DNA of 64,000 nt from Candidatus Latescibacterota bacterium (GTDB lineage Bacteria > Latescibacterota > UBA2968). The stretch is from the NCBI GenBank assembly GCA_965222605.1, contig OZ244960.1:1728001-1792000 (forward strand). The letters run 5' to 3'. Position 1 is the first letter of the stretch; the number at the start of each line of letters is the position of its first letter. The notes beneath the pieces are model-generated. The model made no database searches, was not told the origin of the DNA, and saw only the letters and a list, made by a program, of their open reading frames with translations. A program made the translations under genes and the position numbers. Shown here in pieces: positions 1 through 12,497 of the stretch.

Positions 1-368
1 CCGACCTCCTCGGATTCGCCTTCCCCCTCGGCTTCTTCCTGCAAATCTGCGGTATCCACCACCTCATTGACATCTGCCTGAACATCGAGGTCCGGATCTC
101 CTCCGGCCTCCGTATCGGTCAGCGTCATATCGTCGGGCAAAATCGGCCGCGCCCAGAAAGACCTGAAAACTTCGTCAAAAGTCTCCAGGTCGTCATAGCG
201 CGACACCAGCGTTGCACGCGCAGCAGCATAAAAATCGCGCTGATTATGCATGCTAATATATCGAAAACTGTCGCACAAATCGATGAGATTGCCCGCATTG
301 ACTTCAACGCCTGCAGTGTGCAAAGCCCTCGAAAAACCGACAACTCGTCCCAGCATAGTTCTTGGCAT
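1..368 (-). CDS. VWA-domain CoxE-like protein, N-terminal part (runs off window start)
   Basis: ATG at 368 with AGGAG RBS. Reads MPRTMLGRVVGFSRALHTAGVEVNAGNL...AARATLVSRYDDLETFDEVFRSFW, a CoxE-like N-terminus. Lies directly downstream of a MoxR/CoxD ATPase. Confidence 0.75.
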   Translation of the reverse strand, partial: MPRTMLGRVVGFSRALHTAGVEVNAGNLIDLCDSFRYISMHNQRDFYAAARATLVSRYDDLETFDEVFRSFWARPILPDDMTLTDTEAGGDPDLDVQADVNEVVDTADLQEEAEGEGESEEV

Positions 369-376
369 GTGATCTC

Positions 377-1288
377 CTAAACACCAATTTGTGTGCGTTC
401 TTTTAGCAATCGAGCCTTCTCAATCAGTTGTGGCAAACCGTCTTCCTGAATTTTTTCAATATCTTCTTTATACTTCAAAACACATCCCAATGTCGCATCA
501 ACTATATGCGGGTCCAATTCTTCAACTTTCATAGCCATCAGAGCCAGTGCCCAATCAATCGTTTCGGCAACGCCGGGTTTTTTGTAAAAATCGCGATTGC
601 GCAACAATTGCATAAACCCGCAAACCTGTTGTGCCAATTCGTCCTGCACACCCGCCACACGCGACCGCACAATATCCATTTCTTTGCTAAACGTGGGATA
701 GTCGATCCACAAATACAAACACCGACGCTTCAGCGCGTCGTGCAATTCGCGCGTTCGATTGGACGTAAGTACGACAAACGGCACTTGCATCGCTTTTATC
801 GCACCAATCTCGGGAATCGTAATCTGGAAATCGGACAACACTTCCAGCAAAAACGCCTCAAACTCTTCATCCGATCGATCCACTTCATCGATCAACAAAA
901 CCTGTTGCTTTTCTGCGCTGCCCTCAAGAGCCGCCAAAAGGGGGCGCTTGAGCAAAAAATCTTCGCGGAAAATATTCTGACCAATTTCGGCCTTGTCGAT
1001 TCCTCGCGCTTCTTCAAGCCTTAACTCCAGCATCTGGCGCGGATAGTTCCACTCGTACAATGCAGTATTGGCATCAATGCCTTCATAGCACTGCAATCGA
1101 ATCAACTCAGTATCAAAAATACTGGCCATGACTTTGGCCACTTCTGTTTTTCCAACGCCTGGTTCCCCTTCCAGAAAAATCGGTTTGCCAAGTGCCTGTG
1201 CCAAAAAAATCGTCGTTGCCAATGTGCGGTCAGTGATATACCCCTGCCCGGCAAACCGCTCCTCAACATCTTCAATAGAATTCAGCAT
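377..1288 (-). CDS. MoxR-family AAA+ ATPase (CoxD-like)
   Basis: Walker A GEPGVGKT, Walker B LLIDEVD, RLQCYEG and HDALKRRC motifs. Start set at MLNSIED (1288) after AAGG. Confidence 0.9.
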   Translation of the reverse strand: MLNSIEDVEERFAGQGYITDRTLATTIFLAQALGKPIFLEGEPGVGKTEVAKVMASIFDTELIRLQCYEGIDANTALYEWNYPRQMLELRLEEARGIDKAEIGQNIFREDFLLKRPLLAALEGSAEKQQVLLIDEVDRSDEEFEAFLLEVLSDFQITIPEIGAIKAMQVPFVVLTSNRTRELHDALKRRCLYLWIDYPTFSKEMDIVRSRVAGVQDELAQQVCGFMQLLRNRDFYKKPGVAETIDWALALMAMKVEELDPHIVDATLGCVLKYKEDIEKIQEDGLPQLIEKARLLKERTQIGV

Positions 1289-1311
1289 AATAACCTTTCT
1301 TTTTTGTACAT

Positions 1312-1821
1312 TTAGCCATACTGCGCGACCCAAATTTTTAATGCCTCTCTGGTCGTGTCAAAGGCCAGATCATTCCAGGGAATATCCCGGGGTACAAATG
1401 TAGCCACAGCCTGCGATTCAAAATTGCCCTCCAGCTTTCCGCCCACAACCCGTCCGGTATAAACAATCAGCACCACCCGCTCCCCTTCATAAGACAACAC
1501 GCCGAGCAATTTGCCAATCTCAACCTCTAACCCCACTTCCTCGCGGGTTTCGCGCACAGCCGCGACATCGGTTGGCTCACCCGCATCCACATATCCGCCG
1601 GGAAACACCCACTTGCCAAACCCGGGGTCAATATTGCGCTTGAGCAAGACAACGCCACCATCGAGAGTGACAATAACCCCGGCCGCTACCTTGGGGTCGA
1701 GATAAGCCACAAATCCACACGCCGGACAACACGGTCTCTCCCGATCTTCAACTGCTTTTACAACCAACAAAGTCCCACAGCGCTCGCAAAATTGGGCTTC
1801 GGATTTTATGCAATTGGGCAA
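1312..1821 (-). CDS. NUDIX hydrolase with N-terminal zinc ribbon
   Basis: CERCG/CPACG pairs; Nudix box GGYVDAGEPTDVAAVRETREEVG. TTG start inferred from AAGGTGG RBS. Confidence 0.85.
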   Translation of the reverse strand: MPNCIKSEAQFCERCGTLLVVKAVEDRERPCCPACGFVAYLDPKVAAGVIVTLDGGVVLLKRNIDPGFGKWVFPGGYVDAGEPTDVAAVRETREEVGLEVEIGKLLGVLSYEGERVVLIVYTGRVVGGKLEGNFESQAVATFVPRDIPWNDLAFDTTREALKIWVAQYG

Positions 1822-1905
1822 AGAGATCAACCACCTTACTTTTATTAATACTAAACAGTAGTATTTCAAAGGGTAAAATACATAGGGATGTGTTTCGGGT
1901 CAACG

Positions 1906-1968
1906 AAAAAGCCCCGCATTCAAATTCGGGGCAAAAAAAATGGGAACCGGGTCGCGGACCGGTTCCCA
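1906..1968 (-). terminator. Tandem Rho-independent terminators downstream of phoU
   Basis: TGGGAACCGG-N8-CCGGTTCCCA (1941-1968) followed by U8 on the minus strand. Second hairpin GCCCCG-N10-CGGGGC (1911-1932) followed by U5. Confidence 0.85.
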
Positions 1969-1989
1969 AGAGGGAGAATACGTCGTGCT
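1933..1989 (-). ncRNA. Putative Pho-regulated small RNA (~57 nt)
   Basis: Own Pho-box-like array and extended -10 upstream, strong terminator at the 3' end, and 5' segment complementary to the pstS leader. Confidence 0.5.
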
Positions 1990-1995
1990 TTGGAT

Positions 1996-2039
1996 ATAAT
2001 ATCATTGCCGTGTTACAATCGCGTGTCGCTCGCGTGACA
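1996..2039 (-). promoter_or_regulatory. Pho-box-like repeats and extended -10 downstream of phoU
   Basis: Minus-strand heptamers TGTCACG, CGACACG, TGTAACA at an 11-bp period (+ positions 2033, 2022, 2011), then TGaTATTAT. Confidence 0.6.
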
Positions 2040-2067
2040 GTGTTCGCGACGAAGATACGGTGGGGAT

Positions 2068-2745
2068 TTAGCGCAATTCCTCCTTTTGATGTCTCACAAT
2101 GCGTCCCTGAACGAGATAGACGGCATTTTCGGCAATATTGGATGAATGATCGCCTATGCGCTCCAAATGCCGGGACACGAGAATAAGCAAAATTGCCTGA
2201 TCTACAGTCGAGGGAATCCCTGTGTTTAAGTACGTCAACAACTCGCGAAAAATTTGATCGCGCAAGGCATCCATTATGTCGTCAATTTGGCGCACCTTAT
2301 TGGCCAATTCCACATCGCGATTGACAAAAGCATCTAAAGCATCCTTAACCATGCGACGCGCCAACTCGGCCATTCGAGGAATATCAATCAGCGGTTTCAA
2401 TTGCGGCATCTGATTGAGCAAACGGGCGCGCTGGGCGATATTCACCGCTTGATCATTGATGCGCTCGAGATCGTAATTGATCTTCATAATGCCCGCCACC
2501 AGTCGCAAATCGCTGGCCACGGGTTGCTGTATAGCCAACAACTTCAAACACTCTTCTTCTATCGCCACTTCCCAATCGTCAATGTGATGCCCACCTTCTT
2601 CAACCACATCGGCGAGGTGATTGTCGCGATCCACAAGTGATTGCACCGCCTGTTCAATCGACTCTTCCACCGCACTGCTCATCTTCAACAGCTCACTTTT
2701 GAGGTGGTCGAGTTGTTGGTCGAGGGTACGCTCCATAATCATCAC
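2068..2745 (-). CDS. phoU: Phosphate signalling complex protein PhoU
   Basis: QQPVASDLR, DLERINDQAVNIA and LERIGDHSSNIAE repeats; last gene of the pst operon. Confidence 0.97.
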   Translation of the reverse strand: MMIMERTLDQQLDHLKSELLKMSSAVEESIEQAVQSLVDRDNHLADVVEEGGHHIDDWEVAIEEECLKLLAIQQPVASDLRLVAGIMKINYDLERINDQAVNIAQRARLLNQMPQLKPLIDIPRMAELARRMVKDALDAFVNRDVELANKVRQIDDIMDALRDQIFRELLTYLNTGIPSTVDQAILLILVSRHLERIGDHSSNIAENAVYLVQGRIVRHQKEELR

Positions 2746-2753
2746 TCCCGTTC

Positions 2754-3566
2754 TTAGCCAAACCGCCCCGTCACATAATCTTCGGTTTGTTTGAGCTGCG
2801 GATTGGTAAACATCGCGCCCGTCTCGGCCATCTCAACCAAACGTCCCAAATAGAAAAACGCCGTATAGTCCGAAACACGCGACGCCTGCTGCATATTGTG
2901 TGTTACAATCACAATCGTATATTGCTTTTTCAGCTCTTCAATCGTTTCTTCAATATGCCCTGTCGCAATCGGATCCAACGCCGAACAGGGTTCATCCATC
3001 AAGATCACCGAAGGCTCAACAGCAATCGCACGCGCAATGCACAATCTCTGCTGCTGGCCTCCAGAAAGCCCCAGAGCACTGTCACCGAGTCGATCTTTTA
3101 CCTCATCCCAAAGCGCGGCAGCTTGCAAACTGCGTTCCACTACCTCATCGAGTACTGCCCGCCGATTTTCACCTGCAATTCGCAAACCATAAACGAGATT
3201 CTCATAGATCGACTTGGGAAAGGGATTGGACTTTTGAAACACCATACCGACCCGGCGTCGCAGCGAAATCACATCGTATCCAGAGCTGTAAATATCGTCG
3301 TTGTCAATTTTGATCACACCCTCAATACGCACCGAATCAATCAAATCGTTCAACCGATTCAGGCACCGCAAAAGCGTTGACTTCCCGCATCCAGAAGGAC
3401 CGATAAAAGCCGTCACCTGATGCTCGGAAACCTGCATGTCAATGTCAAAAAGGGCCTGCGTTTCGCCGTAATACAGGCTCAGATTCGACACGGTGACAAT
3501 GGGATTCTGAACATCTGGAACAATTGCTTCAGGCAGTGTATTTTCAGGTTCTGCTTCAGCCATCAT
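2754..3566 (-). CDS. pstB: Phosphate ABC transporter ATP-binding protein
   Basis: [32 protein letters not shown] and C-terminal YVTGRFG. Confidence 0.97.
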
Positions 3567-3596
3567 TATTCCTTTCCCCTCTCACATCTCACCTAT

Positions 3597-5237
3597 TTAG
3601 AACGTCGCACCACCAACGCGCTTGCGAAGCCGATTGCGAACCAGAATCGCCACCAGATTCAGAGCCAGCACAATCCCTATCAGCAATAAGGTCGTCGTAT
3701 ATACCATGGGGCGAGCCGCCTCGACATTGGGCGACTGGAACCCCACATCGTAAATGTGAAAACCCAGATGCATAAACTTGCGTTCCAGATGAAAAAAGGG
3801 CCAGATACCATCCACGGGCAACGCAGGGGCCAATTTCACAACGCCAGTAATCATCAGCGGAGCCACTTCACCAGCACCCCGTGCAATCACGAGAATAATG
3901 CCCGTGAGAATGCCCGGCAGCGCGCCGGGCAAAACCACGCGTAAAATAGTCTGCAATTTGGTCGCCCCCAATGCCAGCGACCCGGCACGCACATCACTCG
4001 GCACAGTAGAAAGTGCTTCTTCGGCTGAAACAATCATCACCGGCACCGTCAGCAATGCCAGAGTTAACGACGCCCACAGAATGCCGCCAGTACCAAATGT
4101 GGGACTGGGCAATGCTTCAGAGAAAAAGAGCTGATCGATACTTCCACCAATGCCGTAAACAAAAAACCCCAGCCCAAACATACCAAAAACAATAGAAGGG
4201 ACACCCGCCAAATTATTAACCGCAATGCGAATAAATCGAACCAGAGTGCCTTGCCCGGCGTATTCGCGCAAATAGAGCGCGGCTAAGATGCCAAATGGCA
4301 CAGCCGCCAAACTCATTAGAAAAACCATCATAACAGTGCCAAAGATCGCGGGAAATACACCGCCTTCTGTATTGGACTCACGGGGTTCATGAAATAAAAA
4401 TTCCTCAACGCGCGAAAAATAAACGCTCGTTTTCCCCAAAATCCCCAGTAGGTTGGGACGATAAGCACGCACGATATCGGCTGTGGCAATCTGTCGCACT
4501 TCGCCGCCAATAAGACGCACATCTATGCGATAAGTCTCGTTGGCTGCACGCAATTGCACCAGCTGGTCGGCCAGTTGCTCATAAGCTTCCCAATAGGTTC
4601 TGCTCTCTCGGTCAATCGCGCCAATGGCATCGGCATTTCCACCACCCAATTCTATCTCGCGTTTTTTTAGGCGCAGGCTCTCAATTTGCCGATTTAAGTC
4701 GCCAATGGCATCTTCTTCAATTTGCCGAATCTGTTCGTGTCGTTCTCGTGTTTTATCCAATTGTTCTTGCAGAACATCCCAGGTGTTCGACACGCGGATT
4801 TCACCTTCGTACAGAGCTTCGATAAACCCGTAAAAATTACCCCACTCGCGCCGCTCAAAAACCACCACATCTTTGGGATAGTCCGTCGATTGAATATCCG
4901 ATTCATCGATCCATTGAAAATCGCTGCCATACACATCGCGATTGCCCACTTTGAGCTGAATGCGAAATTGCCCAGATCCCGTTCGATTCGATTCGGGAAT
5001 CTCCTGCTTGTTCCACCGTTGCCCCATCGCTTTCCGACCATCTTTGAGTATCACAGCTTCGATATCCGAGGGCCAGAAAAATCCGATGCCATTGTACAAA
5101 ACCAGCGCGATCAACCCTGTAATCATAAGCAAACAAAGCGCCAGCGCGCTGCCAGTCAACCAGATAAATGGCACACCTGTTTCCCAAATATGTGCTGAAG
5201 GGCCTCTATTCAGTAAATTTTTCACACCCATCTCCAA
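3597..5237 (-). CDS. pstA: Phosphate ABC transporter permease PstA (long form with coiled-coil insert)
   Basis: PRESNTEGGVFPAIFGT, NNLAGVPSIVFG, GSLALGATK. Confidence 0.95.
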   Translation of the reverse strand: MEMGVKNLLNRGPSAHIWETGVPFIWLTGSALALCLLMITGLIALVLYNGIGFFWPSDIEAVILKDGRKAMGQRWNKQEIPESNRTGSGQFRIQLKVGNRDVYGSDFQWIDESDIQSTDYPKDVVVFERREWGNFYGFIEALYEGEIRVSNTWDVLQEQLDKTRERHEQIRQIEEDAIGDLNRQIESLRLKKREIELGGGNADAIGAIDRESRTYWEAYEQLADQLVQLRAANETYRIDVRLIGGEVRQIATADIVRAYRPNLLGILGKTSVYFSRVEEFLFHEPRESNTEGGVFPAIFGTVMMVFLMSLAAVPFGILAALYLREYAGQGTLVRFIRIAVNNLAGVPSIVFGMFGLGFFVYGIGGSIDQLFFSEALPSPTFGTGGILWASLTLALLTVPVMIVSAEEALSTVPSDVRAGSLALGATKLQTILRVVLPGALPGILTGIILVIARGAGEVAPLMITGVVKLAPALPVDGIWPFFHLERKFMHLGFHIYDVGFQSPNVEAARPMVYTTTLLLIGIVLALNLVAILVRNRLRKRVGGATF

Positions 5238-5241
5238 AACA

Positions 5242-7479
5242 TCAAATTCTGCTATACTTTTCGCGCAAATGCTGCCGCACCACTTCTGCCAGCGTATTCA
5301 CCAAAAAAGTAATCGCCGCCAGTAAAACCCCGGTCAAAAACAGCACGCGATAAAGCGTACCTTCATGAGGGGCTTCGGGAATCTCCACGGCGATATTGGC
5401 AGACATAGTGCGCATGCCATTAAAAATGGTCCAATCCAAAATCGGGGTATTGCCCGTGGCCATCAGTACAATCATCGTTTCACCCACAGCGCGGCCAAAT
5501 CCAATCATAGTCGCGGAAAAAATGCCCGGGCTCGCCGTGGGCAACACCACGCGGATAGCCGTCTGCCAGAGCGTTGCGCCAAGCGCGAGTGACCCGGCGC
5601 GCAGATGCTGCGGCACACTGGACATGGCATCTTCACAGATCGTGTAAATAATGGGCACCACAGCAAACCCCATGGCAAAGCCCACCACGAGACAGTTGCG
5701 CTGGTCGTAGCGCGTACCCGTTGTGCCGAGCAGCCAGCTTTGAAAATTGCCGCCAAACAAAAGCGATTCAGCTACCGGGCCGAGTGCAAACGACAGATAA
5801 AGCGCGAGCAACGCGATGCCCGACAGCAAAGTTAGAATCCAGAGATCGGATACTTTGTGTGCAAGATCTTCGGACACCTGCCCCCACGCCCACGCACATA
5901 TCACCACGATAATGGGCACACAAGGCAGCAACAACAGCGCACCAACAATTCTCGTTTCCAGCAGCGGTGCCAACCACAAACCAGCCAAAAAGCCCAAAAT
6001 CACGCTGGGAAGCGAAGCCATCAACTCCACTACGGGTTTGACCAGATTGCGTACGCTGGGAGAGGCAAATTCCGATGTGTAAATCGCTGCCAGAATGGCC
6101 AAAGGCAGCGCGAATAACATAGCGTAAAGTGTGCCCTTAAATGTGCCAAATATCAAAGGTACAATACTAAACTTAGGTTCAAAATCATCTGACCCACCCG
6201 TAGATTGCCACACGTAGTGAGGCTCCGTATATCCCTCGTACCACACTTTGCCAAAAAGCGTTTGCAACGTCACTTCGGGATGTGGATTTTGAAGGTCAAA
6301 ATCCGTCACCTGACCCGACTTACTCACAGTCAAAAAGCCATCCGCTTTGGGTGCGAAAGACAGGGTTTGAATGGGATCACCGCGCAATTGAAAAAATGTT
6401 TGTTCCGACGTCATGTGATGCAACGCAACCACCCCCGATACATCGCCCGATAAAAACTGTTTGTCTCGAGCAGACGACGCCAGTGCAGTCACCGCCGCCG
6501 GATGAGACCGCAAGGTGTGAATCTTCTTAAACGTCCTTTTATTGTCGCCTTCGCGCGTCCTGACGGGCATCCAGGCAGACACCTGGCCGCCTACATCGCC
6601 CACGAGGAGCGACACATCGCCCAGCACAAAGTCCAGCGCAGTCACCGCTTGATCGGAAACCGGAAAATGATCCAATAGCCTGGGCTTGGAACTCGCCCGC
6701 CCGACTTCCCATCGAAACACATCACCGCGATCTGTGCCCACCAGAACATAGCGTCCCGATTTCGCCACAGCCCCCACCCTGGCGCGCCCTTTGATGTCAG
6801 CGGTCAAATCGTATGTGCGAACAATTATTTTGCCATCACCCAAAAGACCGCGCTGTTTTTCGGAAATTCCCAAAACGAGTTGCCCGGAATCCGCAATGCC
6901 AAGTGCTGTGCTTCGGGATCCTCCATCGTGCCGAAATACGATATGCACAAGTGCCTTATCGGTTAAATCCATCGACGATTCAACAGAAAAAGACGGTGTC
7001 ACAATCCGCTTTCCCTCCGCATCGTAATCCACGGTAAATTTCACGCGGCAACTCAGCATTGTACCGTCGTTCAGCCCCAGGCCAACGTGCGTGTTATCCA
7101 GGGCGCGATAAGCCGCCCGAATGCGCCGTCCCTGTAGTTCGGGGACAGACACCGACTTTGTCACCGATTTTGTGGTCATATCCAAGAAATCAATCCCCGC
7201 TTCATGCACGACAAACATCACGGCCTGATAGGGATCAACCCCCGTACAAAGAACGGGCTGACGGTGCGAAAAATCAAAGGTATGCGCCCTGGATACGCTC
7301 GGCTTAAAAAATAGGGGATAGGACTCCATCAAAACAAAAAGGAAAATGCCCAGCACAGACAGAATCACCCCGATGCCGCCAGCAGTGATCACCCACCGCC
7401 CAGTGCGATCCATCAGACGTGCGCCTCGCGTAATACCGGGCAATTGTCGCTTTGATATTGGTTTTAACGGAAGTAACAT
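5242..7479 (-). CDS. pstC: Phosphate ABC transporter permease PstC (long form with beta-propeller-like domain)
   Basis: WQSTGGSDDFEPKFS, GRAVGETMIVLMATGN; WD40-like repeats in the N-terminal half. Confidence 0.93.
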   Translation of the reverse strand: MLLPLKPISKRQLPGITRGARLMDRTGRWVITAGGIGVILSVLGIFLFVLMESYPLFFKPSVSRAHTFDFSHRQPVLCTGVDPYQAVMFVVHEAGIDFLDMTTKSVTKSVSVPELQGRRIRAAYRALDNTHVGLGLNDGTMLSCRVKFTVDYDAEGKRIVTPSFSVESSMDLTDKALVHIVFRHDGGSRSTALGIADSGQLVLGISEKQRGLLGDGKIIVRTYDLTADIKGRARVGAVAKSGRYVLVGTDRGDVFRWEVGRASSKPRLLDHFPVSDQAVTALDFVLGDVSLLVGDVGGQVSAWMPVRTREGDNKRTFKKIHTLRSHPAAVTALASSARDKQFLSGDVSGVVALHHMTSEQTFFQLRGDPIQTLSFAPKADGFLTVSKSGQVTDFDLQNPHPEVTLQTLFGKVWYEGYTEPHYVWQSTGGSDDFEPKFSIVPLIFGTFKGTLYAMLFALPLAILAAIYTSEFASPSVRNLVKPVVELMASLPSVILGFLAGLWLAPLLETRIVGALLLLPCVPIIVVICAWAWGQVSEDLAHKVSDLWILTLLSGIALLALYLSFALGPVAESLLFGGNFQSWLLGTTGTRYDQRNCLVVGFAMGFAVVPIIYTICEDAMSSVPQHLRAGSLALGATLWQTAIRVVLPTASPGIFSATMIGFGRAVGETMIVLMATGNTPILDWTIFNGMRTMSANIAVEIPEAPHEGTLYRVLFLTGVLLAAITFLVNTLAEVVRQHLREKYSRI

Positions 7480-7511
7480 AATAAGAATAGATAACCTGCA
7501 TCAAAGGCTAA

Positions 7512-8480
7512 CTACTGTAACTTCTCGAGCTCCTCTTTAACCACCTGATAGGGCACGGGCATATAGCCATCTTTCACGACAATCTCTTGCCCTTCTTTGG
7601 AAAAAATGAACTTACAAAATTCCCGCACCAGCGGATCGAGAGGTTTATTGGGCATCTTGTTGATGTACAAATACAAAAAACGCCCCAGGGGATAAGACCC
7701 ATCTATCACATTTTCTATCGTGCCCTCTCTGAAGGATTCGCCAGTTTCCAACGCCAGAGGTAGGATGCGCACGCCGGAAGTCCTGTAACCTATGCCACTA
7801 TAACCAATGCTGTACCTGTCTTCGGCCACGCCCTGTACCACCGAAGCAGACCCCGGTTGCTCTTTTACTTCATCTTTGAAATCGCCCTTAAACAGCGCGT
7901 GATCTTTGAAGAATCCATAAGTGCCCGATGCTGAATTGCGACCGTAAAGGCTGAATGCGGCATTTTTCCAATCGCCTCCCAAATCCAACTGCCCCCATCT
8001 CACAATATTTTCCTTATAATCACCGCGTCGCGTCTTGGAAAAAATCGCATCTACCTGCTGCAAAGTCAACCCCTTAATCGGGTTATCTTTATTGACAAAA
8101 ATAGCCAGTGCATCCAGCGAGGCACTCAACACTGTTGGTGGATATCCAAAATGCTCCTCAAATTTATCTATTTCCGAAGCCTTCATCGGGCGTGACATCG
8201 GCCCGAATTGCGCGGTACCTTCAATGAGCGCGGGAGGCGCAGTACTCGAACCCTTGCCCTCAACCTGAATTGTTACATTGGGATAGTACTTGCGGAAGCC
8301 TTCCAACCAAAGGGTCATCAAATTATTCATCGTATCTGACCCAATGCTATTGGCACTTCCGGAAACCCCACTCACTTTTTGATACTCGGAAACAGACGAA
8401 TCTTGCTGCGCCTGAACTGCCTGAACCGCAGCCTGGGTCAAAACAGCCACACATGCAATCATACAAATAAATCTGGTCAT
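7512..8480 (-). CDS. pstS: Phosphate ABC transporter substrate-binding protein
   Basis: Signal peptide; GSDTM, GKGSSTAPPAL, GRNSASGTY and YPLGRFLYLY motifs. Confidence 0.95.
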   Translation of the reverse strand: MTRFICMIACVAVLTQAAVQAVQAQQDSSVSEYQKVSGVSGSANSIGSDTMNNLMTLWLEGFRKYYPNVTIQVEGKGSSTAPPALIEGTAQFGPMSRPMKASEIDKFEEHFGYPPTVLSASLDALAIFVNKDNPIKGLTLQQVDAIFSKTRRGDYKENIVRWGQLDLGGDWKNAAFSLYGRNSASGTYGFFKDHALFKGDFKDEVKEQPGSASVVQGVAEDRYSIGYSGIGYRTSGVRILPLALETGESFREGTIENVIDGSYPLGRFLYLYINKMPNKPLDPLVREFCKFIFSKEGQEIVVKDGYMPVPYQVVKEELEKLQ

Positions 8481-8557
8481 TCAATCTCCCTTCTATCATG
8501 CGACTTGCACGACGTAGTGTTGTAGGGGTATAGGGTGCGAAAAATAAACCTGTATCG

Positions 8558-8597
8558 TGTTACAATAGTGTGACGAAAGCACGACATTCATGTGATA
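8558..8597 (-). promoter_or_regulatory. Pho-box array upstream of pstS
   Basis: Four heptamers at an exact 11-bp period (+ positions 8558, 8569, 8580, 8591). On the minus strand they read TATCACA, TGTCGTG, CGTCACA, TGTAACA, resembling PhoB TGTCA half-sites. Confidence 0.75.
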
Positions 8598-8713
8598 ACT
8601 CAGGTTCAAAACTTAACATATAGCGTTAGCCGGGGAACCACCTCAATAAGACATCGCTATAATGTTACAAATCACCTCCAAAACGGTTACGTTTTGAAGA
8701 CTAATATTTTTAT

Positions 8714-8743
8714 TTGACAATCTGCTCCATATCGTATTATAAT
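8714..8743 (+). promoter_or_regulatory. Sigma70-type promoter of ppk1
   Basis: TTGACA-N18-TATAAT. Confidence 0.7.
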
Positions 8744-8789
8744 ACCTGACATTTAACTCAATTCCGCCGCCTCTTCCCCGGAGTGTGTT

Positions 8790-10910
8790 ATGGACCTCGG
8801 CGATACCAGTCTCTATTTTAATAGAGAGCTCTCATGGCTGCGTTTTAATCAGCGCGTATTACAAGAAGCCCGTACCCCCGAAAATCCCCTGTTGGAACGT
8901 GTCAAATTTCTGGGCATTGTGGCCAACAACCTCGACGAGTTTTTTGAAGTGCGCATAGCGGGCCTGCTCCAACAAGTAGAAGCGGGCATTTCTGACTACG
9001 GCCCCGATGGCCTCCTGCCCGAAGAACAAATTTCAGCCATTGCAAAAGAAGCTCATCGCATGGTTGAGGAGCAATACGCCTGCTGGAATGACGAACTCCT
9101 TCCCGCATTGCGCGATGCAGATGTTCGCATACGCACCGTCAGTACGCTTTCTGCCCGCGAAAAATCCTTTCTCGACGACTATTGCCACGCAGAATTCTAC
9201 CCGGTTTTAACCCCGCTCACCATCAGCCCTGCACACCCATTGCCACGCCTGATCAACAAAGCCCTTTGCATCGCCCTTTTGCTCAAAAACCGCGAAGGTG
9301 AAACACTGCTCGGCGTCGTGCAGGTTCCTCGTCTATTGCCGCGTCTGATTCGCTTGCCCCGAGAAGAAGACAGCCAGCGCATCGACTTTGTCTTCCTTGC
9401 CGATATTGTTCAGGCACATATTCCCGAACTTTTCCGGGGATATCAAATTCTCGACACCGCTGCTTTCCGCATCACCCGAAATAGCGATCTTTATCTGGAC
9501 GAAGAAGAAGCCGACGACTTATTGCTCGCCATTGAAGACGAATTGCAAAATCGGCGCAAAGGCGATACGGTCCGTCTCGAAATCGAAGCCGATGCCAGCC
9601 GGGCACTTGTCAAGCGCTTACAATCGACATACAGTCTGAAAAACAATCAGATTTATCAGGTCAACGGACCGGTGAATCTCAACCGTTTGATGGGACTTTA
9701 TAGCGCGACCCCCAGACCCGATTTGAAATATGCACCCTATCACCCGCCCGACCAGACTTATGAAGAAATCGAAACCCTCTTTGATCAGATCAAGCAAAAA
9801 GATATGTTGCTCCACCACCCCTACGATGCCTTTACACCCGTTGTTCAATTTGTCAATTCAGCGGCAACCGATCCCGGTGTGCTCGCCATCAAACAGACGC
9901 TCTATCGCACCAGCGAAGATTCGCCCGTTATCGATGCTTTGATTCGCGCTGCGGAGGCGGGGAAAGAAGTAACAGTGGTTGTTGAACTCAAAGCGCGATT
10001 TGACGAGGAATCCAATATTCGATGGGCGCGCCGCCTTCAGGATGCGGGTGTATGCGTCGTATATGGCGTCGTAGGCCTTAAAACGCATTGCAAACTCTCG
10101 CTGCTGGTCAGGCGCGAAACCAACAATGGCCTGCGGCGCTATGCCCACATCGGCACGGGCAATTACAATCCCTCAACAGCCCGACTTTATACGGACCTGG
10201 GGTTGTTCACAGCACGCGAAGACATCACAAACGATGTAGCCGAAGTTTTTAACCTGCTCACCACGCAATCTGCACATCCCCAGGTCAGCAAGATGCTCAT
10301 TGCGCCCTATACCATGCTCGATTCCATCCTTCAAAAAATCGACCGCGAAATCGACCATGCACGCAAAGGACGCACCGCCCACATTGTTGCGAAAATGAAT
10401 TCACTTCAAGACCCCAAAGTCATTCGCGCGCTGTATCGCGCATCGCAAAACGGCGTGCAAATTGACCTGATTGTGCGCGGTATATGCTGTCTGCGTGCGG
10501 GTGTTCCCGGTATAAGCGACAACATCAGAGTACGCAGCATCATCGGGCGATTTTTGGAACACAGCCGCATCTACTACTTTGAAAATGATGGAAATCCCGA
10601 TGTGTACATTGGCAGTGCCGATTGGATGCCTCGAAATTTGCGCCGCCGCGTAGAAACGCTTTGCCCCATCGAAGATCCGGACTTAATTACACGGATAAAA
10701 TCAGAACTCCTCAGCACATGCTTTGCCGACAATGTCAAATCGCGCAAACTACTGCCCGATGGCACAGACCGTCACATTGCACCCGCCCCAAACGAACCTT
10801 CATTCTGCATGCACGACATGCTCATGAACCTGTCTCTGGGCGAACCCGTCGATATCCCGGACTTTTTTCCCCAAACACCATCCTCAGTCGGATCGGCTGC
10901 TGCCACTTAA
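8790..10910 (+). CDS. ppk1: Polyphosphate kinase 1
   Basis: NRELSWLRFN, NLDEFFEVR, LKTHCK, GTGNYN, GRFLEHSR, SADWMPRNL. Confidence 0.97.
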   Translation: MDLGDTSLYFNRELSWLRFNQRVLQEARTPENPLLERVKFLGIVANNLDEFFEVRIAGLLQQVEAGISDYGPDGLLPEEQISAIAKEAHRMVEEQYACWNDELLPALRDADVRIRTVSTLSAREKSFLDDYCHAEFYPVLTPLTISPAHPLPRLINKALCIALLLKNREGETLLGVVQVPRLLPRLIRLPREEDSQRIDFVFLADIVQAHIPELFRGYQILDTAAFRITRNSDLYLDEEEADDLLLAIEDELQNRRKGDTVRLEIEADASRALVKRLQSTYSLKNNQIYQVNGPVNLNRLMGLYSATPRPDLKYAPYHPPDQTYEEIETLFDQIKQKDMLLHHPYDAFTPVVQFVNSAATDPGVLAIKQTLYRTSEDSPVIDALIRAAEAGKEVTVVVELKARFDEESNIRWARRLQDAGVCVVYGVVGLKTHCKLSLLVRRETNNGLRRYAHIGTGNYNPSTARLYTDLGLFTAREDITNDVAEVFNLLTTQSAHPQVSKMLIAPYTMLDSILQKIDREIDHARKGRTAHIVAKMNSLQDPKVIRALYRASQNGVQIDLIVRGICCLRAGVPGISDNIRVRSIIGRFLEHSRIYYFENDGNPDVYIGSADWMPRNLRRRVETLCPIEDPDLITRIKSELLSTCFADNVKSRKLLPDGTDRHIAPAPNEPSFCMHDMLMNLSLGEPVDIPDFFPQTPSSVGSAAAT

Positions 10911-11110
10911 ATGCAATCCCACCAGACGAGCTACCAGCACCGCCAGATAGGTTTGTCCCCAAACAGCTTCCAAAAGAGCCAGGTTTTTCGCCATCCGGCT
11001 CACAGGCATTATATCTCCATAGCCCAGAGTGGTCATTGTTACAAAAGAAAAATAAATCATATCTGAAAACCCACCCTGGACATGATCCGAAAACAAAATC
11101 GCATTCTGGA
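10884..11110 (-). pseudogene. Potassium channel fragment (pore helix, selectivity filter and last TM only)
   Basis: IYFSFVTMTTLGYGDIMP...LEAVWGQTYLAVLVARLVG. No upstream hydrophobic TM segment before the sulfatase stop. Confidence 0.7.
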
Positions 11111-11201
11111 CCTTTACTCTTTGATCTCTCCACGCTGTCCTCCATTTGCTCTTCTCACCATTTCTGGACTGTTCTCCATTCCCAGCACTGCCCTCAATCA
11201 C

Positions 11202-12497
11202 CTATTTTAACGTCACGCGCCTGTACCAGTTCTGCAGCACATCGTACAAATGCGCTTGTTTCTCGTTATAATTGGGATCGCGTAGCAGATTATTCATCTC
11301 GTAGGGATCATTTTCCAAATCGAACAGATGTGTTGCCTCAAAGCCTTCTTTTTGCACCACCAGCTTAAACGCGCCTTCGCGCACCATACACCAGGGCTGC
11401 ATTTCTGAAAACACCGGTCGTTCTAAGCTTTGCGAAGGATCGCTCATCAGAGGCGCGAAACTATCGCCCTCTACCGAAGGCTCGGGGGGCTGTCCAGCGC
11501 AATCTACACAAGTCGCAAAAAAATCCACACCAGATACCAGATCATCCACCACTGCACCTGCTGCACCACCCGGTGCGCGAACAATCAGGGGAATGCGACT
11601 CGACTCCTCCCAGGCCTTGCCCTTATTCGTCTCTCCGTGACTACCCTGCAAATCTCCGTGATCCGACGTAAACATCACCACCGTATTATCCCGCAACCCC
11701 ATGCGATCCAGCGCATCCATCATCCGCCCCACATTTGCATCCAACTGCGTCACCATCGCGTAATACGCGCGCAGATATTCATTCAGATTATTGCCATAGC
11801 GTTGATAAATCGGATCATTCTCCTGGGGTTTGGGACTCGGCGGGCTGTGCGTTCTCGTATAGGGATCAACCTCCTCGCAATTTGGACGTCGCGCAATGGT
11901 CACGCCCCGATACATCTCGTCGTATTCATATCCCGGTTGCTCGGGATAATGCGGATTCTGATAGGACACAAACAGTGCGAAAGGCGCGTTCTCCGCCATC
12001 TTCTCCATTCGCTCAATCGCAATATCACTTGTCACATCCGTTCTGTGATGACCGTACCAATATTCATCACCTGCTTCATCGTAAAACTTCACACTGTGCA
12101 AAAAATCATTATAACACTGATACCCGATAAACTCCGTGAAATCCGCCCGCAACTCGGGTGGTATCCACACATTACCCGTTGCGCCCAAATGCCACTTGCC
12201 CACCCAACCGGTTCGATATCCCGCATCATTTAGCGTGCCTGCCAGTGTGCGCGTCCCCTCGGGAATATACCGCCCATTGCGCAACGTATCTGTCTGCGAT
12301 CCATATTGCCCCGAAATGAGCGTCGCGCGAAACGGCGTACAAACCGGCGCATTGGAATAACAATTTCGAAACAAGACCCCTTCTCGCGCCAGCTTGTCCA
12401 GATTTGGCGTGTGAATATCCTCCGTTCCCATACACCCCATCGCAAAAGCGTGCATCTGATCGGCAAAAAGAAAAAGAATATTCGGTCTATCGCTCAT
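11202..12497 (-). CDS. Sulfatase (formylglycine-dependent)
   Basis: PNILF, CTPFR (CxPxR), GKWHLG, TSDHG. Confidence 0.92.
   Translation of the reverse strand: MSDRPNILFLFADQMHAFAMGCMGTEDIHTPNLDKLAREGVLFRNCYSNAPVCTPFRATLISGQYGSQTDTLRNGRYIPEGTRTLAGTLNDAGYRTGWVGKWHLGATGNVWIPPELRADFTEFIGYQCYNDFLHSVKFYDEAGDEYWYGHHRTDVTSDIAIERMEKMAENAPFALFVSYQNPHYPEQPGYEYDEMYRGVTIARRPNCEEVDPYTRTHSPPSPKPQENDPIYQRYGNNLNEYLRAYYAMVTQLDANVGRMMDALDRMGLRDNTVVMFTSDHGDLQGSHGETNKGKAWEESSRIPLIVRAPGGAAGAVVDDLVSGVDFFATCVDCAGQPPEPSVEGDSFAPLMSDPSQSLERPVFSEMQPWCMVREGAFKLVVQKEGFEATHLFDLENDPYEMNNLLRDPNYNEKQAHLYDVLQNWYRRVTLK

Follow-up and report, generated by a model that had tools for sequence, protein, structure and literature searches.

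Few RNA regulators of phosphate homeostasis are known, and almost all known bacterial regulators of phosphorus metabolism are proteins, as stated in a study on Bacillus (PMC11522486). The same study describes PhoS (Bas01) of Bacillus velezensis and B. subtilis, an RNA of 66 nt that is encoded after phoR, is preceded by four Pho boxes and a conserved extended -10, contains a fully conserved C-rich 5′ seed of 17 nt and a terminator, and acts on the phoP leader; the evidence for PhoS comprises a Northern blot, dRNA-seq, primer extension and reporters (PMC11522486). In Salmonella Typhimurium, the sRNA STnc1860 is located downstream of phoU, and its co-transcription from the start site of pstS has been described. 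It is the only sRNA reported as differentially expressed in a phoBR mutant, and a role in phosphate assimilation was suggested (PMC5001712). EsrL of E. coli was reported as a phosphate-responsive, PhoB-bound sRNA gene; in a ChIP-seq study, PhoB binding upstream of esrL was not detected and many E. coli PhoB sites are reported to be transcriptionally inert (PMC10294691).

Here, we describe a candidate sRNA gene downstream of phoU in a genome of the Latescibacterota, which has the position of STnc1860 and the predicted anatomy of PhoS, in another phylum and without a match in Rfam. Like PhoS, the candidate would be a small RNA located where a Pho-regulon operon ends, with a predicted length of ~56 nt as compared with 66 nt for PhoS. 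It would likewise have its own Pho-box promoter and extended -10, a conserved 5′ seed, a Rho-independent terminator and a target, here a candidate one, in the leader of the gene that opens its operon. In contrast to PhoS, which follows phoPR and activates phoP by freeing the RBS, it is found after pstSCAB-phoU in most copies, with its site in pstS; it belongs to another phylum, is predicted from sequence, and was compared with PhoS by description. It shares with STnc1860 the position downstream of phoU, but has its own conserved Pho-box promoter and persists apart from phoU, again judged by description. EsrL is likewise described as a phosphate-type sRNA gene; unlike EsrL, the candidate is linked to the pst operon. 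MicL and DapZ are 3′-UTR sRNAs with their own promoters inside coding sequence and a terminator shared with the upstream mRNA, and they need Hfq. The candidate resembles them in its own promoter and shared terminator, and differs in having this promoter downstream of the stop codon, in a genome where our search revealed no Hfq gene. Our literature search found neither a description of the candidate nor a described sRNA for Latescibacterota.

If this reading is correct, the locus would be an independent example in an uncultivated, sponge-associated phylum, and the arrangement of a Pho operon ending in a Pho-controlled sRNA would have evolved more than once. If a feedback circuit on pstS also exists, it would suggest a general design in which Pho operons carry a 3′-end riboregulator acting on their own leader, and it would be the first riboregulator described in Latescibacterota. 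Promoter, RNA and candidate site are all short, well-defined elements, which makes the proposal open to direct testing, and natural variants lacking the site or the promoter exist as controls.

Genomic Context of the pst Operon

The window is the whole stretch of 64,000 nucleotides that was analyzed (G000:C1:1728001-1792000). It derives from a genome of 6.34 Mb in a single contig, with 51% G + C and an estimated completeness of 98.7%, here labeled G000; its genus is g1. For comparison we refer to the genera g4 (G023), g9 (G047, G048, and G049) and g3 (G050). Most RNA runs listed with small parts of the stretch, which derive from relatives, are labeled as sponge metagenomes. Based on Pfam matches, the window contains the operon pstS-pstC-pstA-pstB-phoU on the minus strand, with ppk1 divergent from pstS:

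8480-7512, minus strand: pstS (ATG at 8480)
7479-5242, minus strand: pstC, a long form
5237-3597, minus strand: pstA
3566-2754, minus strand: pstB
2745-2068, minus strand: phoU, the last gene of the pstSCAB-phoU operon

The phoU gene is followed by a gap of 198 bp, a NUDIX gene (1869-1312, minus strand) and a MoxR-type AAA gene. The module studied here is located between the phoU stop codon and the operon terminator in G000 and in the majority of g1 genomes.

Both permease subunits are far longer than usual for Pst permeases. PstC (window 5242-7479, minus strand) has 745 amino acids, with a WD40/beta-propeller-like segment at approximately residues 231-414, before the permease domain; PstA (window 3597-5237, minus strand) has 546. 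Between ppk1 and the Pho array of pstS (window 8600-8800, minus strand), relatives have at least one additional same-strand gene, and the flanks of this region are 1.1 to 7.7 kb apart. In G000 apparently only the 3′ end of that extra gene is retained, with its TGA just upstream of the pstS array.

A Candidate Pho-Box Promoter Downstream of phoU

On the minus strand, the phoU stop codon is followed by CTGTCAC-gcga-GCGACAC-gcga-TTGTAAC, 10 nt, TATTAT preceded by TG, and a 7-nt spacer. The individual elements, and the array upstream of pstS, are:

2034-2040, minus strand: Pho-box-like heptamer 1, CTGTCAC (TTGTCGC or TTGTCAC in most relatives)
2023-2029, minus strand: Pho-box-like heptamer 2, GCGACAC (GTGACAC or GTGGCAC in g4 and g9)
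2012-2018, minus strand: promoter-proximal heptamer 3, TTGTAAC, which also forms the last heptamer upstream of pstS
1996-2004, minus strand: extended -10, TGaTATTAT, with the hexamer at 2001-1996
8559-8598, minus strand: pstS Pho array, TTATCAC, ATGTCGT, TCGTCAC and TTGTAAC, with an 11-bp period

The original prediction had proposed three heptamers at an 11-bp period, ending in TGTAACA, with the same promoter-proximal half-site as at pstS, and an extended -10 (TGaTATTAT), and we found all strings and coordinates that it gave to be correct. A PhoB-type promoter calls for two or more direct TGTCA-like heptamer repeats with an 11-bp period, and the candidate has three (2040-2012). In E. coli, the Pho box substitutes for the -35 element, and ~10 bp separate its end from the -10. 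The candidate has the same geometry, with the array in place of a -35 and a distance from TTGTAAC to TATTAT of exactly 10 nt. As judged by eye, the gap is equal at pstS in G000, g4 and g9; in G000, the four-heptamer array of pstS is followed by 10 nt and TTTATT at 8548-8543. Among relatives, the -10 hexamer of the candidate varies (TATCAT, TATCGT, TATTCT), with T1, A2, T3, and T6 kept in all.

To place the array in its genomic context, triplets of TGT[CA]A[CT] hexamers spaced by an 11-bp period were scored on both strands, with a threshold of 16 of 18 positions. The whole genome contains eight such arrays, three of them intergenic by crude gene calls: the one at pstS, the candidate after phoU, and one at G000:2596306. 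The latter (G000:C1:2596306, minus strand; TTGTAAT-ggat-TTGTCGC-gcga-TTGAAAC) is located 59 nt upstream of a 204-aa gene beginning MKKVFIYWDNSNIF and has a poor -10. A PhoB-like regulator is encoded at G000:2209158-2209829, scoring 259.7 bits, which is below the TIGR02154 cut-off of 296.2; no Pho box was seen upstream of this gene in G000. A two-heptamer search for a wider Pho regulon gave 210 matches, 38 of them intergenic and 16 upstream of genes, where pstS was the only gene clearly related to phosphate. As a by-product, this search yielded a motif TGTAAYACAYATTTAAYA common to the upstream regions of glnA (G000:C1:1148054, plus strand) and a PII-like gene (1218824, plus strand), which may be a site for a nitrogen regulator.

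The Predicted RNA and Its Terminators

Downstream of the 7-nt spacer the minus strand reads GCACGACGUAUUCUCCCUCUU, which leads into a hairpin of 10 bp and a run of eight U residues. The predicted features are:

1969-1988, minus strand: single-stranded 5′ tail, GCACGACGUAUUCUCCCUCU, with a probable start at 1988 or 1989
1933-1968, minus strand: terminator 1, a G + C-rich hairpin of 10 bp (1968-1941) followed by U8 (1940-1933)
1906-1932, minus strand: terminator 2, a second hairpin followed by U5, conserved but more variable than terminator 1

Terminator 1 would form the 3′ end of the predicted ~56-nt RNA and, in G000, also that of the pst-phoU mRNA. The 56-nt RNA has a predicted folding energy of -19 kcal/mol (z = -3.4), a stability reached by none of 200 shuffled sequences, and the 5′ tail of 20 nt is unpaired in the predicted fold. 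No Rfam match was found in the region when window positions 1-12000 were searched with cmscan, allowing E-values up to 1, and no Hfq gene was found in G000, at its completeness of 98.7%. Directly after terminator 2, a sigma-70-like promoter for the NUDIX gene is recognizable (TTGACC-17-TATTTT; window 1875-1932, minus strand). Because terminator 2 and the NUDIX promoter are kept in all three genera that carry the module, the module always lies upstream of the NUDIX and MoxR genes.

Conservation Across the Order

In BLAST searches the gap region was found in all 20 other g1 genomes and, outside g1, in one of four further genera of the family. We then derived a covariance model from 22 copies and searched 53 genomes of the order with it; it identified exactly one copy in each of 24 genomes belonging to three genera: g1 (20/20, plus G000), g4 (1/1) and g9 (2/3). 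There were no matches in six genomes of three other genera of the family, nor in 22 genomes of the sister family. The 20-nt start of the RNA is present in 13 of 185,579 species genomes, all titled Candidatus Latescibacterota or Latescibacteria MAGs. A scan of metagenomes for the tail plus the start of the stem gave two contigs, both resembling genomes already in the comparison.

Conservation is unevenly distributed over the module. The three heptamers, the 4-nt gaps between them, the 10-nt gap and positions T1, A2, T3, and T6 of the hexamer are kept in g1, g4, and g9, while the genera differ in the letters of the spacers and in the stretch of 6-7 nt from the hexamer to the G that opens the conserved block. 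Nucleotides 1-18 of the RNA are identical in 20 of the 24 copies; G008 has one change and three copies have diverged. The terminator loop is variable across copies. The terminator stem stays paired, by way of G-U intermediates and, in G023, a replacement of A-U by G-C; in G048 AA/UU is replaced by GG/CC (by eye). For reference, the coding DNA of pstS is 74-77% identical between g1, g4, and g9. Within the g1 core, pairwise identity is 97% for the tail, 95% for the 3′ end of phoU, 78% for the stretch preceding the start and 48% just past the stop codon. As the g1 core is highly conserved throughout, the strong argument from conservation lies in the two outgroup genera only. The conservation pattern of heptamers, -10 and tail fits a promoter plus a functional transcript.

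Natural variants of the arrangement bear on the relation of the module to phoU. In G001, ~1.9 kb of gene fragments separate phoU from the module. In g9, genes of 305 and 146 amino acids without Pfam matches are located upstream of it, and in G049 the pstS start precedes the module by ~10.9 kb on the same strand. By its sequence context, the predicted module is independent of adjacency to phoU. The fragments in G001 (L018) comprise a piece of 140 amino acids that looks LanC-like and two membrane or ABC-like pieces, and may be remnants of an inserted gene cluster. Three other genomes (G010, G016, and G018) have lost the heptamers and show divergence of tail nucleotides 1-10, while UUUUCYCCC, the hairpin and the U-run are retained. 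Since loss of the heptamers and decay of the first ten nucleotides occur in the same genomes, conservation of the first half of the tail is confined to genomes that also keep the promoter.

The small phosphate-starvation RNA that was originally proposed thus gains on the comparative side: three genera share the heptamers, their spacing, the -10 and an invariant predicted start, including in genomes where another gene separates the module from phoU. We consider the reading as a small RNA driven by Pho boxes to be well supported by this comparison of genomes, and the locus is probably a Pho-regulated sRNA gene.

RNA Contigs From Relatives

Four of the 18 listed RNA runs were compared with the window. 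All contigs derive from relatives and come from three sponge metatranscriptome studies; positions 1857-1958 are without a contig, which is no finding. Contigs span phoU and the proposed promoter and end at 1982 (X1 and X4, from two studies) or at 1965 (X7), but contigs cannot show transcript ends, and the stops could reflect breaks in assembly at sequence common to co-occurring strains. One RNA contig over phoU is 7.8 kb in length. The contigs agree with the block being part of the 3′ UTR of the operon and are silent on an internal start.

Complementarity to the pstS Leader

The start of the predicted RNA is complementary to the leader of pstS, for which two contacts had been put forward:

8507-8516, minus strand: pstS leader site UACGUCGUGC, complementary to RNA nucleotides 1-10, at -36 to -27 from the ATG
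8485-8491, minus strand: pstS Shine-Dalgarno sequence AGGGAGA, complementary to UCUCCCU of the RNA (1977-1971), a generic contact

We confirmed that GCACGACGTA (1988-1979) is the exact reverse complement of TACGTCGTGC (8516-8507), and that AAAGCACGAC occurs on the plus strand at 8576-8585, inside the pstS Pho array. This in-array copy overlaps heptamer 2, upstream of the likely transcription start, and is kept in g1 and not in g4 or g9. The second contact stands as complementarity (TCTCCCT at 1977-1971, AGGGAGA at 8491-8485), but it is the ordinary complementarity to a Shine-Dalgarno sequence; in G023 the Shine-Dalgarno sequence is AAAGGAA instead of AGGGAGA. The complementary 10-mer is not rare in the genome, with 10 copies on both strands and ~12 expected.

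To assess the leader site in other genera, we compared the longest complement to RNA nucleotides 1-18 in the last 80 nt of each pstS leader with that in 5000 mononucleotide shuffles of the same stretch:

G000 (g1): 10-nt complement at -36 to -27 from the AUG, 1 of 5000 shuffles
G023 (g4): 10 nt, AUACGUCGUG, at -28 to -19 from the AUG, 4 of 5000 shuffles
G049 (g9): 9 nt at -27 to -19 from the AUG, 23 of 5000 shuffles
G048 (g9): 8 nt at -27 to -20 from the AUG, 52 of 5000 shuffles
G047 (g9): 8 nt at -26 to -19 from the AUG, 65 of 5000 shuffles

A complementary site is present in all four g4 and g9 genomes examined, within -28 to -19, and the pstS leader of G050 (g3), where the model did not find the sRNA, has a complement of 4 nt at best. 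Leader lengths differ (by eye, ~60 nt in g9 and G000 and ~190 nt in G023), and the distance from site to promoter ranges from ~25 to ~140 nt in g4 and g9, also by eye. The distance to the start codon is kept there, and therefore a role at the RNA level fits better than an operator. The sequence UAACAGAAGGGAGAU, after the site, is common to the leaders of G007 and g9. Because the leaders are homologous, the site appears to be ancestral and retained rather than reinvented; since the similarity between the g9 and G007 leaders extends beyond the site, its conservation may in part reflect inheritance and not selection.

Within g1 the picture is different. Among 20 genomes including G000, the site is exact in one, has one uncompensated mismatch in two, and is deleted or diverged in 17. 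In the first 16 genomes it is exact in G000, mismatched in G007 and lacking in 14; four more add one mismatch (G019) and three lacking. The mismatched site of G007 and G019 is ACGUCUUG, and the RNA of G007 is unchanged. For 14 relatives, the duplex between each tail and its own pstS start region is predicted at -8.0 to -13.4 kcal/mol, an ordinary range, whereas G000 reaches -18.5 kcal/mol. The pstS gene tree is poorly resolved inside g1, so that the number of site losses cannot be counted from it. As the tail of the RNA is invariant, the relatives offer no compensatory changes between tail and leader that would support pairing.

The evidence for the originally predicted pairing at the pstS leader is mixed: the 8-10 nt in g4 and g9 and the exact site in G000 speak for it, and the loss or breakage of the site in 19 of 20 g1 genomes speaks against it. 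The genome-wide ranking of targets that had been suggested, done with a simple duplex energy, placed pstS 217th of 5200 G000 start regions (-45 to +21) and 447th of 5200 with a wider region (-70 to +30). It is plausible that feedback on pstS is an ancestral function, kept in G000 and dispensable in most of its congeners.

Folding of five pstS leaders gave no shared structure hiding the RBS. The G023 leader (L178) has a terminator-like hairpin with the loop UCUCCCC, followed by a U-run, which may be an attenuator; the loop is similar to the C/U motif in the candidate RNA.

Proposed Mechanism and Alternative Explanations

The best explanation, which we favor tentatively and would not yet call probable, is an sRNA gene with a PhoB-type promoter directly after phoU, the product of which pairs through its 5′ tail with targets that include an ancestral site in pstS. 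From the sequence elements described above we infer PhoB binding, the start site, a discrete RNA, and pairing in vivo and its effect. Under phosphate limitation, a PhoB-like regulator would bind the three heptamers, which take the place of a -35 element, and transcription would start at approximately 1988. The product would be ~56 nt, with an unstructured 5′ tail of 20 nt, the 10-bp hairpin and U8, and a longer form may end at terminator 2; in G000 the pst-phoU mRNA would read through the module as its 3′ UTR. The invariant 5′ tail most likely base-pairs, without Hfq. One ancestral partner would be ACGUCGUG, just upstream of the pstS RBS and kept in G000 and two other genera, where pairing would tune the synthesis of PstS or the stability of pstS mRNA. 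Because no fold hiding the RBS was seen in the leaders, we lean toward repression as the predicted outcome. As most congeners keep the tail and have lost the pstS site, other targets must exist. The full circuit, a PhoB-driven RNA feedback loop on pstS and further mRNAs through the first ~10 nt of the RNA, retained for as long as the family has existed and independent of PhoS of Bacillus, is possible but doubtful.

The invariance of the tail in g1, set against a pstS site that is lost or broken in 19 of 20 genomes, would also be expected if the sRNA gene and its Pho-box promoter are real, the pstS match is a non-functional relic and the RNA acts on other mRNAs. We regard this as rather unlikely overall, even though G001 keeps the tail with no site in either of its candidate leaders, pstS ranks low by duplex energy (217th or 447th of 5200), and the exact 8-mer occurs in two clear G000 leaders, about the level of chance. 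A relic is difficult to reconcile with a site whose distance to the start codon is the same in g4 and g9 despite a different surrounding leader in G023, and our searches gave no better conserved target. The similarity between the two loci could alternatively reside in the DNA, with a protein recognizing a near-palindromic ACGWCGT within the shared 8-10 bp. ACGACGT and ACGTCGT differ at the centre only, GTCGTGC is also found in heptamer 2 of the pstS array in g1, and in G000 and g9 the pstS site lies within ~30 bp of the likely start. Yet it is the distance to the start codon that is constant and not that to the promoter (the G023 site being ~140 nt downstream of the array), the in-array copy is not kept in g4 or g9, and no site has both half-sites perfect, which makes such a motif highly improbable.

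A further reading dispenses with the sRNA gene altogether: the block would be the 3′ UTR and terminator of the pst-phoU mRNA, the tail would serve stability or processing of the mRNA 3′ end, and the heptamers would be PhoB sites without promoter activity or would act otherwise, for instance as a roadblock or by looping to the pstS array. Transcription from upstream is compatible with the RNA contigs of relatives, which are continuous from phoU into the block, and with the same-strand gene found upstream in every genome examined (g1, G001, and G048); no intervening terminator is visible in the upstream sequence, a systematic terminator scan covering G000 only. There is precedent in the co-transcription described for STnc1860 (PMC5001712) and in the inert PhoB sites reported as common in E. 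coli (PMC10294691). What such a UTR would leave unexplained is the promoter-like architecture, namely the fixed distance of 10 nt to a hexamer in which T1, A2, T3, and T6 are constant across three genera, the variability of the 6-7 nt between this hexamer and an invariant block downstream, and the joint loss of heptamers and tail nucleotides 1-10 in G010, G016, and G018 with the terminator kept. We therefore consider it distinctly unlikely, and retain the PhoB-type promoter and its sRNA as the preferred reading.

Search for Further Targets

No conserved target besides pstS was found by the ranking in the single genome G000 and by pattern searches across g1, and other genes of the operon and ppk1 showed no notable complementarity. 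The best target among start regions, at -27 kcal/mol, is the leader of an OpuAC-like lipoprotein gene (G000:4774978, plus strand). It was rejected as a conserved target, because only the near-identical G019 has a match to this leader and the gene is one of a multi-copy family; the N-terminal part of the protein (L065) is present in several paralogues per genome across the genus.

Complements of 12 nt to tail nucleotides 1-12 gave 41 matches in 18 of 21 genus genomes, compared with 4 for a reversed control. Eighteen of these are the sRNA loci themselves. Sixteen of the other 23 were examined, and consist of nine instances of one conserved block, five of another and two singletons; both recurrent blocks read as coding on the strand with the sRNA-sense sequence, and none is a target. 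For nucleotides 7-17, complements of 11 nt gave 133 matches and the control 25. No recurrent start-region site emerged from the six non-self matches of G000 and the 30 loci examined, the single recurrent block reading as the 5′ end of a gene on the reverse strand.

The exact 8-mer ACGUCGUG, the complement of RNA nucleotides 2-9, occurs in two clear 5′ leaders of G000, where we estimate that ~2 are expected by chance. Beside pstS, a leader with this sequence belongs to a secreted protein with Temptin_C and dockerin-like parts (G000:1147842; leader site C1:1147887, minus strand; L181/L182), divergent from glnA, where it is located ~40 nt upstream of the AUG within a small hairpin. In 16 core genomes this site is exact in ten, wobble-compatible in five and broken in one, and it has diverged in G001, G010, G016, and G018. 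We treat it as a lead only, since the changes also preserve the local hairpin and the whole leader is 82-88% conserved. The same 8-mer is found at G000:C1:3738615 (plus strand), probably by coincidence, in the segment GGUUUAGAACGUCGUGAGACAGUUCGG, which we take to be a universally conserved segment of 23S rRNA.
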